A DNA stretch of 32,553 nt, from IMG/VR virus record IMGVR_UViG_3300020044_006473, positions 1-32,553 of that record; one strand, given 5' to 3'. The position numbers were made by a program, and so were the translations under genes. The notes below the pieces were generated by a model. It was given only the letters and a program-made list of their open reading frames with translations, searched no databases and was not told the DNA's origin. Shown here piece after piece: positions 878-32,553 of the stretch. The stretch is from a virus. Lineage: Duplodnaviria > Caudoviricetes. Within the stretch, counting starts at the first letter, position 1, and every line of letters starts with the position of its first letter.

Positions 878-898
878 CCTTTCCACCCCACAACAACA

Positions 899-3173: not shown

Positions 3174-3363
3174 AAGCCCCATTGAGGGCGGCTACTTCAT
3201 CCCAAACAATGACTGGGAAGCGCTTGCGGATGTCCTAGACCAGATTGCCTCGGACACCATCAAAGGTTCGGCCGCTGGGTCGCCCCGGCGCATCCTCGCC
3301 CTGCGCCTCCGTGGTGTGGCTGACTTCGCCCGCGACCCCTTCAACGAGGCCAAGATTAAATGA
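3154..3363 (+). CDS. Hypothetical protein
   Basis: Leader CCCACCAACA-ATG; ATGA overlap with the next gene. Confidence 0.65.
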   Translation: MEPNKNKSPIEGGYFIPNNDWEALADVLDQIASDTIKGSAAGSPRRILALRLRGVADFARDPFNEAKIK

Positions 3364-3842
3364 GCCACCCTATTGCCCTGCTGTCCTATGTTGGCGCCGC
3401 CTTCCTGGCGGGCCGCGACGATGCCTACCGCTCCACGATGGCCCACTTCCACCTTGTGGAAGCCGTGGGACAGGTGGAGAGCGGGATGAACCACTACGCC
3501 GTGGGAGATCACGGCGCCGCCGTGGGCGCTTGGCAGATGCACCCGGCCGCCTGGATTGATGGCAACCGCCAATTGAAAAAAGAAGGCCAGAAGATGTACC
3601 CTCGGGGGGACTATATGAACCCCAAGGCGTCGCGGGCCGTGGCCTCCGCTTACCTCCGCTTGTGCGGGGCTAGGCTCCGGGAGGGCGGCATCAAGAACCC
3701 TTCGCCCCAGCAGTACTATCTCTGCTTTGCGATGGGATACCAGTCCTTTAAGGACGCCGGGTTCGACCCTGCCCGATGCCCCAAGTACAAGGTTGACGCC
3801 GCTATTCGGGTTGGGCATATCTTTGCGAATGCCACCCAGTAA
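3360..3842 (+). CDS. Lysozyme-like / lytic transglycosylase-family protein, possible endolysin
   Basis: Catalytic QVESG motif, then AVGDHGAAVGAWQMHP (GxxQ motif); hydrophobic N-terminus. Confidence 0.75.
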   Translation: MSHPIALLSYVGAAFLAGRDDAYRSTMAHFHLVEAVGQVESGMNHYAVGDHGAAVGAWQMHPAAWIDGNRQLKKEGQKMYPRGDYMNPKASRAVASAYLRLCGARLREGGIKNPSPQQYYLCFAMGYQSFKDAGFDPARCPKYKVDAAIRVGHIFANATQ

Positions 3843-4542: not shown

Positions 4543-4749
4543 ATGCTAAAGAAACTCAACAAACAGCCACCCGCAAAGATCGTAGCCTCCATTCCCGAGA
4601 CCGCCTATATGGTCTCCAAGGACGGCCGGGTCTTCCGCGAACTCAAGCCTACTGTCATCCAGGAACGCCACTACTACAACATCGTCCTCGATGGTGTGTT
4701 GCGTCGCGTCTCCAAGAAGGAACTCATCGAGGTTGCTTCCAATGTCTGA
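4543..4749 (+). CDS. Small protein with a NUMOD4-like motif
   Basis: IPETAYMVSKDGRVF...LKP resembles NUMOD4; no HNH domain follows. Confidence 0.55.
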   Translation: MLKKLNKQPPAKIVASIPETAYMVSKDGRVFRELKPTVIQERHYYNIVLDGVLRRVSKKELIEVASNV

Positions 4750-6710: not shown

Positions 6711-8174
6711 ATGTCGGCTACTGCCACCCAGCCGACCCTGCGTCCGTATCAAGAGCAAGCCGTCCAGGCTTGCGTTGATGCGTTGTCCAAAGATGTCAAC
6801 CCGCTCCTAGTCGCTCCGACTGGGGCCGGGAAGACTGTAATGGCTTGCGAACTGATGCGCCGTTGGCAGACGGCCACAGGTCGCGAGTGTTACTTCTTCG
6901 CCCACCGCGAAGAACTACTTTCCCAAGCCCAAGCCGCGATGGATCGCTTCGGCGTCCGTGGCAAGGCTCTCTCCGTATTCAAGAAGCAGTTCGATGACTA
7001 TCCCGGCCGAGCGGATGCCTTATGCGTCTTCGACGAAGCGCATCACGCTGTAGCCACATCCTGGAAGAATGTCTCCACAACCTTCCAAGGCCCGAAGGTG
7101 GCAATCACCGCCACGCCAGACCGACTGGACAACCAGCGCCTAGAGGGCGCCGGGTTCACCCAGGTACACCAGATCGAGATTCAACGCCTCATCAAGGACG
7201 GCTACCTAGTCCGTCCGATGGCGCAGAAACTCCCTCTTTCTATCTGCGACAACATCATTGAGAACTATGACGACGCCATTGAGGCTGTTGCCAAGTCCGT
7301 GGTCGAGCAGTTTGTCCATTTTAACCGCCAGCGGGCGATGGTCTTTCTCCCCAGCGTTGACTCGTCCAGGCGCTTCAGCGCCGAACTCCGCAAGTTGGGC
7401 TATGACTCCTCTCACCTGGACGGCACATCGGGCAAGTTGCGCGGTATGTCCGTTGATGACTTCAAGTCTGGTCTAACCAAGTTTATGTGCAATGTGGCGC
7501 TGTTCACCGAGGGCTTCGATTGCCCAGAAGTGGACTGCGTTGTCCTCCTGCGTGAGACCAAGTCCCGCGCCTTGTGGTCACAGATGATTGGCCGTGGCCT
7601 CCGCACGGCTCCGGGCAAGACCGATTGCCTCATCCTCGACCCGATGTGGGTGAGCGGTACGCATACCCTCGCCCCAGGCGATGCCTTCACCCAGCACCCA
7701 GAATCCCGGTGCAAGCAGAGCCTTGGCCTATCAGACCCCCTAGGGGAGGCTGAAATGACCGACCAGGACGCCGAGCAGAAGTTGCTTGAGAAGATCAAGC
7801 GCATCGAGCGCCAACAGGCCAGGGAGGAAGCCAAGAACCGAGGTCTGCTCGATCTGTCCGTGGTCACCCCTCTCTTCGGCTTCACGCCGCCTCCCACCGA
7901 GTCCACGGAGGCAATGACGGCCAACCAGAAGAACACCCTGGAGCGCTTCCAAATCTACGCCCCTGCGGATCTCCCGCTGGAACACGCCGCCTACATCATC
8001 CACAAGATGACGGAGCGCCAGCGCCTTGGTCTAGCCACGGCGAAGCAAGTCCGCAAGTTGCGTCAGTTCGGCCACCGCAAGGCGAACACCTACACCATCG
8101 ACCAAGCCAGTAAGGCCATCGGCACCGACTGGCGCATCACCGGGCGCACCCGCGCTCGCAAAATTTTCCGATGA
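6711..8174 (+). CDS. Superfamily 2 (DEAH) DNA helicase
   Basis: LRPYQ, APTGAGKT, DEAHH, TATP, TEGFD, QMIGRGLR. Confidence 0.93.
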   Translation: MSATATQPTLRPYQEQAVQACVDALSKDVNPLLVAPTGAGKTVMACELMRRWQTATGRECYFFAHREELLSQAQAAMDRFGVRGKALSVFKKQFDDYPGRADALCVFDEAHHAVATSWKNVSTTFQGPKVAITATPDRLDNQRLEGAGFTQVHQIEIQRLIKDGYLVRPMAQKLPLSICDNIIENYDDAIEAVAKSVVEQFVHFNRQRAMVFLPSVDSSRRFSAELRKLGYDSSHLDGTSGKLRGMSVDDFKSGLTKFMCNVALFTEGFDCPEVDCVVLLRETKSRALWSQMIGRGLRTAPGKTDCLILDPMWVSGTHTLAPGDAFTQHPESRCKQSLGLSDPLGEAEMTDQDAEQKLLEKIKRIERQQAREEAKNRGLLDLSVVTPLFGFTPPPTESTEAMTANQKNTLERFQIYAPADLPLEHAAYIIHKMTERQRLGLATAKQVRKLRQFGHRKANTYTIDQASKAIGTDWRITGRTRARKIFR

Positions 8175-8515
8175 GTAACGACGAAGATTTGATGGACATC
8201 ATCACGCGACAGCGTCTTACTATCTATCACCAGGAGCGCCGCATCGAAGGTCTAGAACTCTCACTTTCCAAAGCCACCCAAATGAACCCAAACGACATCA
8301 TCAATCAAGCCTTCGTGCAGTTGCAGACGAGCAACGCTCTGATGGCTTCCAAACTCCGCATCGAGCAGTTGGAGAAGGAGAACTCCCTTCTCAAGACTCG
8401 CGGCGGCGTCCTGTGCCAGATTGTTACCGATCTCTCGCACTACGCCCCGGCTAACGCGATCACCGAAGCGGTGGTTAAGGAGGCGCTGAAGAAGTGGTAC
8501 GAGACCAATGCCTGA
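8171..8515 (+). CDS. Coiled-coil hypothetical protein (alternative start 8282)
   Basis: ATGA-coupled start; second in-frame ATG at 8282 with an AAGCCACCCA leader. Confidence 0.7.
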   Translation: MSNDEDLMDIITRQRLTIYHQERRIEGLELSLSKATQMNPNDIINQAFVQLQTSNALMASKLRIEQLEKENSLLKTRGGVLCQIVTDLSHYAPANAITEAVVKEALKKWYETNA

Positions 8516-10372: not shown

Positions 10373-10587
10373 ACCTCATCCACCAGGAGAGGTTATCGGA
10401 AGTTGATAAGATTCCACCTGACTTCTATGATGCCAAGGAGTGGCAGAAGAAGTGGGGTATTTGTCGTACCTCTACTAGGAACGCCCTGAATCTTGCCATC
10501 AAGAAAGGCATCATGGAACGAAAGTTTTTTCGTGTTGCAATCAAGGGTGACTACCGCAGGGTGGGATACTACAGAGCCACCAAATGA
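10336..10587 (+). CDS. Small winged-helix-like protein
   Basis: AKEWQKKWGICRTSTRNALNLAIKKG helix-turn-helix pattern followed by a beta-wing. Confidence 0.6.
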   Translation: MASPKSEAQRLLDLIHQERLSEVDKIPPDFYDAKEWQKKWGICRTSTRNALNLAIKKGIMERKFFRVAIKGDYRRVGYYRATK

Positions 10588-12149
10588 AACCTATCTGCTT
10601 TAAGATCAGGGGCGGCGTCGAGCGTGAAGACGGCTCGCGCGGTTCCACCAACATCGGCAAGATGGCCGGGAAAGGATACCTCGGAAGCGAGGACAAAGCC
10701 TTCACAGTCATCTCCACACAAGACCAATACCTTTTCTCTGGACAAGGCGATGGATCTTACTCATACCCTTTTAACAAGCCACCCATGACTCAAAAGAAAC
10801 TGAAATACCTTTCGCTGTTCAGCGGCATCGAGGCCGCCAGCGTTGCTTGGAAATCACTCGGCTGGGAGCCTGTTGGCTTCTCCGAGATCGAGCCGTTCCC
10901 TTCGGCCGTACTCAAGCATCACTTTCCCAACACACCCAACTATGGCGACATCACAAAATGGAAAGACTGGGGACTCACCCCAGGCTCAATTGACCTTGTT
11001 TGCGCTGGATCACCCTGCCAAGCATTCTCCACAGCAGGCCTCCGAAAAGGACTGGATGACCCTCGTGGCAACCTGGCCCTCGTCACCCTTGGACTTGTTG
11101 AATTTCTTAAACCCAAGTGGTTCCTTTGGGAAAATGTCCCCGGCGTCCTTACATCTGGAGGGGAGCGAGGAGCAGGGTCAGACTTTGCGGCCCTCCTCAC
11201 GGCGCTGGGGGACATCGGGTATGGGTGGTCATACCGCATCATTGACGCTCAACACTTCGGGGTGGCACAGCGAAGACGGCGAATCTGGCTATGCGGCTAC
11301 CGCGACCCTGTCACAGGTACTGGAGACTGGCGATCTCCCGCCGCAGTACTTTTTGACCGCGAAAGCCTGCGCTGGAATCCTTCGCAGGGCATCGGCTCGC
11401 GGCAAGCCTCTCCCCGAAATGCTCCGAAGGGCGCTGGAGAAGAAGGTAGCCGAGGGTGCTTCTGGGACGGAGGACAAGTAACCCAGACGCTCGACGCCGT
11501 GCTGGCGAAAGGCCAGACTATGCCAGAGAAGAACCGCTTCCCGGCCGTCCTCGTACCCGAGCCTGTTGTGCTTGATCGTGCGGCGTTCAACCAGGGCGAG
11601 AACGCCCAGTACGACCCGCACATCAAGCAGGAGGAGCAGATGGTCACCTTGGTTGCCAAGGGGCCACACGCCGTGGGCCAGCCTATCCCCATCAACACCG
11701 AGAATATGTCCCCGAGTTCAACCTCTTGGGGTAATACCATCGGTGAGCCGGGAGACCCGCAGTTCGCCATCACGAAGTCCCATTGCCAAGCCGTTGCCCA
11801 GCCTATCATTACCTCTGCGCTTACCACGGCGAAGGGATCTCGCGGTGGATGCTCCGACGAGGCCATTGATGAGATTGCGAAGGTTGCCCAGGCCAGCAAT
11901 TACGAGATGCTTGTGCGGCGTCTCACCGAAAAAGAATGTGAGCGACTCCAGGGCTTTCCCGATGACCACACCAAGATTCCGTGGAAGGGTAAGCCCGCTG
12001 ACGCCTGTCCTGCTGGCCCCCGGTATAAGGCTATTGGTAACTCCTGGGCCGTGCCTTGCGCCAAGTGGATCGGCGAGCGCATTGCAATGATTGAATCTAT
12101 CCAAGATGAAGCGAAAAACAAAACTGGCGAAGGAACGAGCGAGGCTTGA
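10584..12149 (+). CDS. DNA (cytosine-5) methyltransferase, probably multispecific (several TRD-like modules); second start at 10785
   Basis: Motif I LFSGIE, IV GSPCQAFS, VI ENVPG, VIII QRRRR, IX RRLTEKECERLQGFP, X YKAIGNS; long modular variable region. Confidence 0.93.
   Translation: MKPICFKIRGGVEREDGSRGSTNIGKMAGKGYLGSEDKAFTVISTQDQYLFSGQGDGSYSYPFNKPPMTQKKLKYLSLFSGIEAASVAWKSLGWEPVGFSEIEPFPSAVLKHHFPNTPNYGDITKWKDWGLTPGSIDLVCAGSPCQAFSTAGLRKGLDDPRGNLALVTLGLVEFLKPKWFLWENVPGVLTSGGERGAGSDFAALLTALGDIGYGWSYRIIDAQHFGVAQRRRRIWLCGYRDPVTGTGDWRSPAAVLFDRESLRWNPSQGIGSRQASPRNAPKGAGEEGSRGCFWDGGQVTQTLDAVLAKGQTMPEKNRFPAVLVPEPVVLDRAAFNQGENAQYDPHIKQEEQMVTLVAKGPHAVGQPIPINTENMSPSSTSWGNTIGEPGDPQFAITKSHCQAVAQPIITSALTTAKGSRGGCSDEAIDEIAKVAQASNYEMLVRRLTEKECERLQGFPDDHTKIPWKGKPADACPAGPRYKAIGNSWAVPCAKWIGERIAMIESIQDEAKNKTGEGTSEA
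10942..11481 (+). CDS. Nested +1-frame protein resembling the beta polypeptide of M.EcoHK31I-type methyltransferases
   Basis: Stop-free +1 frame 10843-11481; KMSP...SSRRWGTSGM...TLSQVLET...FL...RA..RGKPLP matches my recollection of the beta polypeptide pattern; start uncertain. Confidence 0.65.
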   Translation: MATSQNGKTGDSPQAQLTLFALDHPAKHSPQQASEKDWMTLVATWPSSPLDLLNFLNPSGSFGKMSPASLHLEGSEEQGQTLRPSSRRWGTSGMGGHTASLTLNTSGWHSEDGESGYAATATLSQVLETGDLPPQYFLTAKACAGILRRASARGKPLPEMLRRALEKKVAEGASGTEDK

Positions 12150-29218: not shown

Positions 29219-29509
29219 TCAGAGTCCTCGGAAGTTATTCAGAAGGTTACCGACTCGGCAACGATCAATAGATCCGTAGATTTCTGGGACTTTCAACTGA
29301 AGGGCATAGCGGCATTCCAGGAGGATGGTCGGGGGGTCAATCGGCCAGTCTTTGCGGATGTCTGTGCCAGAATCCCGGTATTCCATGATCGTTTTGCCCT
29401 CTTTGACGAGAGCAACTGCCTTTGCCTTGATCTCTTCGATATCAACCACATCCAGGGTCATAAAGATGCCCTTGGGGGAGGTAGACCCACGATAATGCAC
29501 GAATGCCAT
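29219..29509 (-). CDS. Head-tail adaptor (gpW-position) protein
   Basis: 96 aa between terL and portal. Confidence 0.65.
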   Translation of the reverse strand: MAFVHYRGSTSPKGIFMTLDVVDIEEIKAKAVALVKEGKTIMEYRDSGTDIRKDWPIDPPTILLECRYALQLKVPEIYGSIDRCRVGNLLNNFRGL

Positions 29510-29528
29510 AAGCGTTGCCTCTGGTCAA
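29509..29528 (-). promoter_or_regulatory. Late element copy 5 (TTGACCAGAGGCAACGCTTA|TG)
   Basis: Consensus match; the final A is the A of the ATG. Confidence 0.65.
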
Positions 29529-29608
29529 AAGGGATAGCCTGTCCGCTACCACAACAACGACACGCTTGAGAGCCACCCAGGCGAATTAAATAGCGGACAG
29601 GCTACTCC
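29527..29608 (-). ncRNA. Candidate ~80-nt structured antisense small RNA
   Basis: Perfect 14-bp stem (29535-29548 / 29591-29604), internal hairpin, 3' U-tract, upstream TTGACA at 29639-29634. Confidence 0.55.
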
Positions 29609-30801
29609 TTCACCTTTGTCCCCTCTTCGGGTTTGTCAACAGCCTTTTCGTCGGTGGCGTTCTTATTTTTACCACGGCCGACCAGTTTAGCCATCAAGGC
29701 GGGAAGGATGCCCATGACCTCACAGTCCCAGATATGATTGGGTCGGTCACCGATCTGCACCCAGATGGGGCGCCCAGTTTCCCCGGTGGTGCGGTGTTCG
29801 GACTGCATCATCTTGCGGTACTCGTCCCCTGCGTCCTGGGCGTAGGTGTGGTGTCCAGCCCTACGGAGGCGGGTGAGGGTGTCCTTCAGCACAAGGTTGG
29901 AGAACATGAACATACGGCACGACTGCTTGCCGACCTGGATGACCTTGGCTGGCGCGTAGGGTCGGTAGGCCATCTTCAGTCCGTAAGGGGTCTGCACCTT
30001 CCAGGGGAACTCGTTGTTACCAGACCCCTTGGTGGCGTTCCAGCCGTAGGAGGCGCAGTTACGATAGACTTCGTCCATATTTGGGCCGTCACCAGAGTCC
30101 ACGAAGACGAAGTTGGATGTCACCTTGTTCTTGACCTGTTGATCTCGGACTTGCTCCCAAGTGTCCAGGTAACCCCACCAGATGAGCCTGGACTTACCCT
30201 CTACGCTCCAGGCGCGGATGACCATGAAGAAGCCGCGTCTCTGCACATCGACAGACATGAACCGAAGCCGCAGGAAGTGCGGCGAGTTGTACATCTCCTC
30301 GGTGAACGGCGGCGGCGTCAGCCTGTTCTGGTAGTTAGACCCCTCGTCGAGCCATTCTTCCAGCATCATGTAGCCGCTAGGCAGGACTTCGCCGCCGCCG
30401 TCATCGGGATCGTCAGACCACGGCAGGGCGAGGCGCTTCTGCTTGAAGTCCCTGCGCTTGGTCTCGTCGCCGCCCTGGTCGAAGGCTTGAGCGCCCTCGA
30501 TAGCCTCGACGGCCAAGTCCCCCCATGATAGCCCCCACAACATGGACATGGCGTTAAAATGAAAACCTCGGCGGCCCTTGGGCGCGGAGGGGTTCAGCGG
30601 CACATACTCGGCGGTAGCGGCCATCTCTGCCCGGACGCTATTACGATCGATGTAAGAGTGCTTGCAATGCTTGCACTCGTAGGTCGTGCCAGCCTTGACG
30701 GCGTCCAAGTCCCAGCCGTTGGCGGTCTTGGCGGCTTCGGGGTACTTGATCTGCGCCCACTCGAAAGGCTGTCGCGTGTTGCACGACACACAGGTGAACG
30801 A
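29602..30801 (-). CDS. terL: Terminase large subunit, C-terminal part (gpA family: Zn-knuckle and nuclease)
   Basis: FTCVSC...YECKHC, GFHFNAM, SVDVQ, FVDSG, ATKG, NHIWDCEV; cut at the junction near 30800. Confidence 0.9.
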   Translation of the reverse strand, partial: SFTCVSCNTRQPFEWAQIKYPEAAKTANGWDLDAVKAGTTYECKHCKHSYIDRNSVRAEMAATAEYVPLNPSAPKGRRGFHFNAMSMLWGLSWGDLAVEAIEGAQAFDQGGDETKRRDFKQKRLALPWSDDPDDGGGEVLPSGYMMLEEWLDEGSNYQNRLTPPPFTEEMYNSPHFLRLRFMSVDVQRRGFFMVIRAWSVEGKSRLIWWGYLDTWEQVRDQQVKNKVTSNFVFVDSGDGPNMDEVYRNCASYGWNATKGSGNNEFPWKVQTPYGLKMAYRPYAPAKVIQVGKQSCRMFMFSNLVLKDTLTRLRRAGHHTYAQDAGDEYRKMMQSEHRTTGETGRPIWVQIGDRPNHIWDCEVMGILPALMAKLVGRGKNKNATDEKAVDKPEEGTKVKE

Positions 30802-31189
30802 CTACTTCGACGACACCCCAGCCGTCCCGCACCGCTACATCTACGGAGACTCGTTCGCGGACAGACTGGCCTTGTCCACCAAGGGACAGGAGGAACCAGA
30901 CACAGTCTTCGGCCCGCTGTCATCCATCATCGCCAAGGTGATCGCCGCCTTCGACTGCGAGTTTGAGCCGAAGGTGATGATGAACAACGACTGCGTCCGT
31001 ATCGCCCTGGGCTACCGCAACTACAAGTCGATGGCCGATGTCGCGAAGAAGTACGGCGTATCCAAGGCCACGATTTCCTGGAGAGTGAAGCAAGTCCAGA
31101 AGCGCCTAGGCATAGCGCCCAGCATCTACATGAGAACGGAAGATACTTGCAAGCGACTCAAACAGGTCGCAAACAACAGGAAGAAATGA
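30794..31189 (+). CDS. HTH (sigma region 4-like) protein, candidate late regulator
   Basis: KSMADVAKKYGVSKATISWRVKQVQKRLG; directly upstream of terS; GTG start lies at the junction and may be truncated. Confidence 0.7.
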   Translation: MNDYFDDTPAVPHRYIYGDSFADRLALSTKGQEEPDTVFGPLSSIIAKVIAAFDCEFEPKVMMNNDCVRIALGYRNYKSMADVAKKYGVSKATISWRVKQVQKRLGIAPSIYMRTEDTCKRLKQVANNRKK

Positions 31190-31839
31190 GCGTCAGACCA
31201 GTAGACATCGCCGAGCGCCTCGGCCTCGCGCGGCAGACCATCAACGGCTTCATCCGGGCAGGGATGCCCATCACCAGCATCGAGGACGCCGAGGCTTGGT
31301 ACCATGAGCGCTCCGCTCGCCGGGATCAGAACCTCACGCCTGACCAACAGTTGGATGACTCGGATAAGGACTTCGCCGCCATCGTCGAGAAGCACCGCCA
31401 ACTGAAGGCCGAAGCCTACGAGCAGTATCGCCGAGACCTACGCAACGAAGATCCGAACCAGTCCAAGTCATACGCCACCTATGACAAGTTGGTGAAGACG
31501 CTGGTGTCCCTGGAGCGTGAACTCCACGCCCGCAACATCGCCGCCAAGGAGTACATCAAGACCCAGACCGCCATCGAGCGCTTCGGCAAGGTCATCCTGT
31601 CCATCCGCAACGAACTCACCCAGTTGTCCACGAAGATCGCCGTCAAGGCCAACCCAGACTCCCCAGGCACGGCGATGAAGGCCATCGACACCGAGGTCAC
31701 CAACATCCTAAACCGACTGTCGGGTCAGTCCGAAGATGCCAAGGATGCCGTGCAGGAGATCGTGGTACTGGAGACTCCGAAGGAAGAGGTCGCAACAGAC
31801 AAACCAGATGAAATCCAACCCGACGGAGATTCTGTTTGA
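31186..31839 (+). CDS. terS: Terminase small subunit (Nu1-like)
   Basis: N-terminal wHTH DIAERLGLARQTINGFIRAGMP, coiled coil, overlaps the terL start. Confidence 0.8.
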   Translation: MSVRPVDIAERLGLARQTINGFIRAGMPITSIEDAEAWYHERSARRDQNLTPDQQLDDSDKDFAAIVEKHRQLKAEAYEQYRRDLRNEDPNQSKSYATYDKLVKTLVSLERELHARNIAAKEYIKTQTAIERFGKVILSIRNELTQLSTKIAVKANPDSPGTAMKAIDTEVTNILNRLSGQSEDAKDAVQEIVVLETPKEEVATDKPDEIQPDGDSV

Positions 31840-32395
31840 GAACACCCTACGGAGTCTGCTGGCGCCAGACCCGGACGGAGATATCATCGACTGGCTTGAG
31901 AAGAACATCAAGAATGTGCCTTACTCGCCACAGCCTGGGCCTTTCCGCATAGAGTCAACCCCATATCTTGCCCCTATCCTGCGGGCGCTCCAAGACCCAG
32001 AGGTCGAGACCATCGTGGTCATGGGCAATGTCCAGAGCGGCAAGTCGATGGTGCTGGAACTGTGGTCGGCCTTCGTGCCGTCCCGCACTCCCGGCCCGAT
32101 GCTCCTGCTCCAGGATGTGGACTTGAACGCGCAGGACTGGCAACAGACCCGCCTCCGTCCGCTCTGGGACAACACGCCATCCACCAAGGCTCGCATCTCC
32201 CAGATTGATCGTAGCAAGTGGCACACCACCCAGTTTGAGCGCAATGTGACTTGGGTGCTAGGCGCCAACAACGAGCGCAACCTCCAGCGCCGATCCATCC
32301 GCTTCCTGGGCGGTGACGAGTGCTGGCAATGGCCGAAGGGTCACCTCAAGCAAGCGCTTGCCCGACGCACGGCCTTCACTTGGCAGGGCAAGTCC
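31808..32395 (+). CDS. terL: Terminase large subunit, N-terminal ATPase part (not in the ORF track; frame stays open to the contig end)
   Basis: My translation: MKSNPTEILF...GPFRIESTPYL...VMGNVQSGKS (Walker A)...IRFLGGDE (Walker B)...ARRTAFTWQGKS. Confidence 0.9.
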
Positions 32396-32553
32396 TACAG
32401 CACAGACACCCGGCAGGAGAACCCTGCTTTGGCAGAGGCTTCCGATCTTGCTCGGGTCAATGCGGCGACATCTACAAATCAAACGGCAGGCGCAGGACGT
32501 GGACTGACTGCGGGAGCGGGGGGGGATGCGGCAACATCTCTCTCTAATGTGCC

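Follow-up and report, generated by a model that had tools for sequence, protein, structure and literature searches.

The DNA analysed here, referred to as the window, is the whole 32,553-nt stretch of a 32.5-kb phage contig whose genes fall into two arms. The plus strand carries the early arm (about 0.6–14.3 kb), with genes for a Holliday junction resolvase, RecT, exonuclease VIII, SSB, a helicase, a methyltransferase and a primase, and the minus strand carries the late arm, with terL, portal, protease, major capsid and tail genes. The C-terminal part of the terminase large subunit gene, terL (29602..30789, minus strand; phrog_15), is followed on the same strand by a 96-aa gene (29219..29509) lying between terL and portal, which is conserved in relatives, is called an adaptor by position only and gave no match when searched against PHROG and Pfam. 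A blastn search of the locus against annotated phages gave no match, and none of 107 candidates was confirmed as a terL relative in species genomes. Primase relatives (73% identity) occur in one Opitutia bin and one Verrucomicrobiota bin, which weakly suggests that the host phylum of these phages is Verrucomicrobiota. Read by eye, the leaders of the early genes in this phage and its relatives are C/A-rich and show no obvious Shine-Dalgarno motif. The adjoining block at 30798–32395, holding a helix-turn-helix gene, terS and the N-terminal part of terL, is inverted with respect to every relative spanning it; terL lacks about 70 nt, microhomology is present at the junction, and terL is a single open frame in relative L001. 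The inverted block is probably an assembly chimera. Window positions 32396–32553 and 1–600 match none of the fetched relative loci, and 102–148 is mostly a poly-G run.

A predicted sRNA body of about 78 nt (29527..29604, minus strand), supported by folding and covariation, occupies the space behind terL and consists of a long closing stem, an asymmetric internal loop, an apical hairpin and a 4-U tail. The 5' arm of the closing stem (29591..29604, minus strand) begins at the terL stop codon and overlaps it (ORF end 29602), and the 3' arm lies at 29535..29548 (minus strand), giving 14 perfect base pairs, or 16–17 with G-U pairs, around a 42-nt interior. Two segments of this interior are candidates for pairing with other RNAs. 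Seed 1, (CU)GGGUGGCUCU (29569..29580, minus strand), presents UGGCU in a pentaloop and stands out by its conservation and as the peak of the complement profile, and seed 2, GUUGUUGUGG (29549..29558, minus strand), is unpaired on the 3' side of the internal loop in the predicted fold and coincides with a minor enrichment peak. The folding z-score is −3.1 over 126 nt and −4.1 over the sRNA body. The first-pass annotation of this DNA had described the 14-bp stem, the 42-nt interior, the inner UGGCU hairpin and the TTGACA/AAAGGT pair, all of which are confirmed at their coordinates. The U-tail that it also described is present but has only four U residues and overlaps a late-gene motif; tails are likewise short in relatives, and a terminator scan of the window did not call the hairpin. 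An Rfam covariance search (E ≤ 1) of the window and six related loci, with the C4 and T-box models included, returned 0 matches. A leader peptide within the element was rejected, as it is not conserved among relatives (read by eye), and an opposite-strand sponge was ruled out by folding and promoter orientation.

The element is widely conserved behind terL. All 28 close terL relatives (73–99%) have the long stem with GGTGGCTCT in the apical hairpin; among them the GGUGGC core does not vary, whereas the sequence of the stem does, and TGGC is invariant across 42 aligned sequences. The element persists in relatives at 57–67%, with the loop variants GGTGGCACT, AGTGGCTGT, GGTGGCTCC and GGTGGCCTC, and the relatives also include GGUGGCACU and AGUGGCUGU lineages; a few, for example L234 and L243, have the long stem without the conserved loop. 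Seed 2 is variable, and CAUGG stands in its place in other lineages. Relatives at 43–54% carry a two-hairpin element in the equivalent place. This form is found behind terL in L159, L165, L172, L176, L178, L182, L186 and L187 with equal promoter spacing, and its recurring first hairpin, of the UUCGGGC..UGGGUUG type, is complementary to a C/A-rich leader plus AUG. At least seven loci (L157, L163, L167, L168, L170, L171 and L177) lack the element; there the next gene follows terL by 31 nt or less and has a late-motif-like sequence. A pattern scan with the GGTGGCTCT loop returned 52 stretches, from which those lacking both terL and a long stem (the L044 group, L047, L050, L066, L067, L070 and L074) were discarded as chance matches. 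A scan with the GGTGGCACTA variant returned 12 stretches, of which the eight examined were chance and the remaining four were known contigs, so that the GGTGGCACTA sub-lineage stays thin.

Comparison of the relatives points to an RNA read on the terL-sense strand. Across 48 distinct bodies, taken from the window plus 49 loci (L154 was excluded since the anchor pattern did not fit), the outer helix averages 16 bp with a mean z of −4.5, the terL-sense strand folds better than the antisense strand in 48/48, and single-stranded RNA of that sense is also indicated by 144 G-U pairs. Changes on both sides were seen in 12 of the 16 stem pairs among 17 hand-picked sequences, a subset used because the 42-sequence alignment was too gappy, and the covariation score of this 17-sequence alignment was 0.61, compared with 0.26 when shuffled and 0.08–0.13 when slid. 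The alignment of terL-adaptor regions that had been proposed as a check at first pass yielded both a covarying stem and a conserved loop.

Upstream of the stem lies a promoter-like signal. TTGACA (29634..29639, minus strand), within the last terL codons, is the −35 hexamer of a predicted sRNA promoter at fixed spacing to the helix, and AAAGGT (29612..29617, minus strand) is its −10-like hexamer, of the form NANNNT. The distance from TTGAC to the outer helix is 35–39 nt in all 48 distinct bodies, even where the terL stop moves; the invariance of TTGAC itself is partly built in because it served as the search anchor. The −10 bases were under no selection when the promoters were collected, and the key A and T are present in 45 of 50 promoters, compared with 0–9 at non-overlapping offsets. 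Thus, AAAGGT, which had been described as a weak −10, is a conserved NANNNT in relatives, while the spacing and place proposed for the promoter are borne out. Because this sigma-70-like TTGAC…NANNNT lies at a constant upstream distance, the element is likely its own RNA gene and probably has a promoter of its own, a property of trans-encoded sRNAs that is found here in silico. We consider it highly probable, from the fold, its covariation and the upstream signal, that a discrete, conserved, structured RNA gene lies on the minus strand behind terL.

A second motif in the same interval, TTGAC-N5-GC-N-AA (29515..29528, minus strand), precedes late genes and overlaps the U-tail. It occurs in 27/200 late start regions and 0/189 early ones, and its minus-strand copies in the window (29528, 26762, 25021, 23268 and 17724) lie 19–30 nt before late start codons. 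We take it as a likely late promoter of the phage, unusual in its spacing, and the copy at 29515..29528 probably drives expression of the next gene. These observations bear on whether the hairpin is only a cis element, either a terminator or processing stem of terS-terL transcripts or a leader of the head genes, with the loop/tag match described below a by-product. The hairpin does belong to the late strand, shares sequence with the terL stop and has U residues at its end, and long stems suit cleavage by double-strand RNases. However, a terminator could do without a promoter at constant distance upstream and without an invariant loop, and as a leader the hairpin would be placed before a gene with its own late motif, a similar form of which is retained in lineages where the hairpin has been lost (read by eye). 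A purely cis role also leaves the complement of the loop at early starts unexplained, and we regard it as unlikely.

The complement of the loop is strongly enriched at early starts. Genes were called with a simple hexamer model that takes no account of upstream motifs, and 189 non-redundant early start regions, each spanning −30 to +33, were pooled from 14 contigs of the GGTGGCTCT clade; the related genomes in this pool are not independent, and in two (G007 and G009) the element was not folded or not on the contig. Among 6088 7-mers, GCCACCC (17) and AGCCACC (14) rank 1 and 2 under order-1 and order-2 Markov models trained on the same start regions, and AGCCACC ranks 4 under order 3. AGCCACC occurs in 14/189 early starts (shuffle null mean 1.3, max 5), compared with 0/200 late starts (Fisher 3e-5) and 0/155 non-late starts of distant phages that lack the loop and have equal C/A content (Fisher 2e-4); it is also found at 0/30 starts upstream of terS and 0/60 starts in variant-loop lineages. 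In 86 held-out start regions, drawn from a further 27 fragments and taken without their RNA, AGCCACC occurs in 7 (null 0.37, max 3) and GCCACC in 16 (null 1.6, max 7). The general C/A-rich leader background, named at first pass as what might explain the matches away, does not account for this enrichment, which holds against Markov models, shuffles and C/A-matched starts. The tag is spread over many genes. GCCACC is present in 17/83 early gene families, its sites span −25 to +23 in differing frames and often in unrelated leaders, and the primase start carries it in 6 contigs, mostly in unrelated leaders; the 6-mer tag is nevertheless found in just 28/189 early starts (15%). When every 7-mer of the RNA was profiled for complements, the loop gave the main peak and GUUGUUG a smaller one. 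An exposed seed with complements in distant start regions, as is typical of trans-encoded sRNAs, is therefore present in silico.

Eight complementary sites had been listed in the window at first pass, and all eight are in place on the plus strand. Those complementary to seed 1 are predicted targets at +2 of the SLT-type transglycosylase start at 3360 (3362..3370), at +2 of ORF 3829 (3831..3839), at +22 of ORF 4543 (4565..4572), at +12 of the helicase start at 6711 (6723..6731; recurring at +12, −11 and +6 in relatives), before the internal ATG 8282, a start that is uncertain (8272..8280), at −11 of the methyltransferase ORF start at 10584 (10573..10581) and before ATG 10786, at about the start of the methyltransferase domain (10777..10785). 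The eighth is a 10-nt complement of seed 2 before ATG 899 (888..897). The seven seed 1 sites are the full set of complements of at least 8 nt to CUGGGUGGCUCU in the early arm, and for 5/7 a called start is no more than 30 nt away (p 5.5e-4). The further statement that all four AGCCACCC copies are near a start holds if ATG 8282 and ATG 10786 count as starts, but the gene caller put both inside genes, and with called starts only the figure is 2/4 (p 0.07). Some in-frame ATG is no more than 30 nt away across 41% of the early arm; the window by itself is therefore modest evidence, and the weight of the case lies with the relatives. The two internal starts are plausible because one is kept in homologs and the other falls at a domain start: the site at 8272..8280 and its downstream ATG are retained in 5/5 homologs of ORF 8171, the methyltransferase PHROG match begins at residue 64, and in relatives an MKYLS-type gene begins after a GCCAC site, comparable to ATG 10786. 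Positions 10584–10785 encode a 67-aa module that precedes the methyltransferase domain in an in-frame fusion; as the tag is present at both starts, the protein may exist in two forms or the fusion may be recent. The primase start of the window itself has no tag.

Matching between RNAs and starts across lineages gives additional, uneven support. When 14 RNAs were compared with 14 sets of non-late starts, matching within the same phage beat shuffled assignments, with p values of 0.002 (10 lineages) and 0.004 (8) for 8-mers and 0.016 and 0.042 for 7-mers. The G024 loop has a 12-nt perfect match to its primase start across the AUG (p 0.013), the G018 loop has a 12-nt perfect match to one of its own starts, also across the AUG (p 0.04), and for the G019 RNA the primase start ranked first of 41. 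The focus on primase was chosen post hoc, and the duplex ranks of its start, computed with no accessibility term, are mixed (1 to 24 of 22–58). Anti-AUG words correspond to start contexts in several lineages, as CAUGG/CCAUG in G011 and G012, CAUAG/CUAUG in G023 and CAUUG/CAAUG in G024, and 2/7 early starts of the Opitutia-bin contig match its CAUGG segment. An excess of own targets is absent in G016, G017, G021 and G023, and longest-match tests gave p<0.05 in just 4/15 genomes, uncorrected. We conclude that some RNA/target co-variation is present but that it is uneven. For seed 2, CCATG occurs in 12/55 versus 0/108 start regions; this co-variation is weakened because CCATG starts are also common in phages without the matching RNA word (5/30, 5/26 and 6/21). 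The seed 2 complement proposed before ATG 899 is thus real as a sequence match, but the segment is variable and the match alone is not significant (p 0.09), so that it is suggestive only.

The conserved loop could alternatively bind a protein or a host RNA through GUGGC, for example tRNA 3' ends, with the early-start tag a separate matter; T-box-like UGGN provides a parallel for binding tRNA 3' ends. G016 and G017 retain GTGGC despite their lack of a target excess, GCCA ends 5/28 tRNAs of the Opitutia bin, and GCCACC occurs in the 3' strands of its His, Lys and Phe tRNAs. The Opitutia-bin 16S rRNA (L288, G040) near position 337 reads CTACGGGTGGCAGCAG, which contains GGGTGGC, a string shared with the loop probably by coincidence. 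Such tRNA and rRNA stretches are normally paired, however, and Rfam gave no T-box match. Binding of this kind would also need a coincidence, since the loop is exactly complementary to the 7-mers that rank highest at early starts, and we consider it quite unlikely. In the 202 kb examined of the 2.4-Mb Opitutia bin, with rough starts, the tag occurs at 5/149 starts against a null of 4.0. This lack of enrichment leaves the tag unsupported as a general host translation signal, and the suggestion that the RNA also silences host mRNAs finds no support, with AGCCACC at 0/149 of these starts.

Taken across the whole chain, we put at roughly 65% the probability that the element is a trans-acting sRNA that blocks translation of tagged early and replication genes. 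One predicted RNA would likely damp many replication genes because its exposed tip mirrors the tag at their starts. Host sigma-70 polymerase would transcribe the RNA of about 78 nt, and terS-terL transcripts ending at the hairpin might supply more of it later on. The UGGCU loop would nucleate pairing with the (A)GCCACC(C) tag, after which the weak inner helix could open (about 4.7 kcal/mol) and a 7–11-bp duplex would form inside the ribosome footprint; computed duplexes, with opening costs left out, come to −17 to −20 kcal/mol. Accumulating RNA would lower translation of about 15% of early genes at the same time, primase, helicase, methyltransferase and small early genes among them, and late genes, which lack the tag, would be spared, making the RNA a lytic timer or dose limiter. 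The original idea of a trans-acting RNA on a dispersed early regulon has thus gained, all in silico, a structured RNA gene, a seed, enrichment at starts and some co-variation. The 11 sequencing runs available all consist of assembled contigs; four were compared with the window, three of these flagged as probably DNA, and their low, scattered cover, which does not pile up on the element, is uninformative on expression.

The direction of control is taken from the position of the sites, and repression is assumed on that basis. The RNA could instead pair with the tagged starts and activate them, or set relative protein levels. The same enrichment data would fit such a role, a host-type promoter would fire early, when the tagged genes are needed, and the C/A-rich leaders have no Shine-Dalgarno motif obvious by eye. 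The sites, however, scatter from −25 to +23 with several over the first codons, where pairing normally blocks ribosomes, and we judge activation very unlikely. A related possibility is that the RNA acts as an immunity factor of a carrier or lysogenic state, a CI stand-in that blocks superinfecting relatives. The host-type promoter would suit this role, a seed common to a broad clade would give cross-immunity, and relatives are found in two Verrucomicrobiota bins. On the other side, no integrase or CI-like match was found among the 49 window entries and 88 further non-late proteins, a scan that in the relatives left out very short and very long proteins, and in G040:C165 the phage-gene part has no host flank. 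An immunity role is therefore a distinctly unlikely one, a lytic timer is likelier because of the missing integrase and repressor matches, and the first-pass suggestion that the RNA stands in for a CI repressor is left unsupported among the proteins scanned.

GcvB uses a G/U seed on C/A leaders. Comparison with described phage RNAs places the element in the general class of trans-encoded multi-target sRNAs, which its predicted features fit. In the accessible part of one source, C4 of P1/P7 is a structured RNA of about 77 nt, with three stem-loops, that RNase P releases from a precursor; it has an immunity role and pairs with mRNA through exposed loops, partly occluding ribosome-binding sites (PMC5320573). 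The ~78-nt element is likewise structured, with loop pairing predicted over ribosome sites. Unlike C4, it consists of one long stem with an apical hairpin rather than the stem-loops P1–P3, has its own promoter signal with spacing that points to a primary 5' end, finds no Rfam match and has its tag on many genes 19–29 kb away in the contig; of the two-segment pairing seen in C4, seed 1 is strong here and seed 2 weak. The P4 CI RNA, as described in the portion available of another source, silences replication genes of its own element through pairing; it is released by processing of the very transcript under its control and works through termination via flanking seqA/seqC (PMC4825925). Control of a phage's own replication genes by RNA is predicted here too. 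In contrast to P4 CI, the sites here lie at start codons on the opposite arm, the window minus strand, which is the RNA's own strand, has 0 copies of AGCCACC and no CI-type flanking sites, and the locus, between terL and head genes and with no integrase match among the proteins scanned, does not look like a temperate immunity region. By these features the element is neither C4 nor CI. It resembles the host sRNA GcvB and the phage sRNAs PreS, VpdS, DicF and 24B_1, as the accessible part of a 2025 review presents them, in having a short conserved seed, imperfect pairing and several targets near starts (PMC12197685). The phage sRNAs covered there target host genes or one phage gene, and none acts on a dispersed early regulon of its own phage (PMC12197685); the antisense RNAs C4 and CI act on one gene or their own operon, in the parts available of the sources on them (PMC5320573, PMC4825925).

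The element represents a real, apparently undescribed phage sRNA family: no description was found in the literature searched, a search short on subscription papers and supplements, so that a listed but uncharacterised motif is possible. The comparison of relatives provides good evidence for its antisense action on the translation starts of early genes. Developmental switches of phages are usually credited to protein repressors, sigma factors and antiterminators. More tentatively, and with somewhat less than even odds, the RNA may be a master regulator behind terL that times the shut-down of the replication arm, with genes joining through a 6–9-nt tag and the seed shifting from one lineage to another, from GGUGGCU to anti-AUG loops fitted to local start contexts. 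If true, one RNA and a portable tag would provide a compact, evolvable control of many dispersed replication genes. The late arm may have a regulator of a different kind, as a small helix-turn-helix protein is encoded just before terS (30776–31189, plus strand; Pfam HTH_50, E 2.3e-5, below the cut-off) and is a candidate late regulator.
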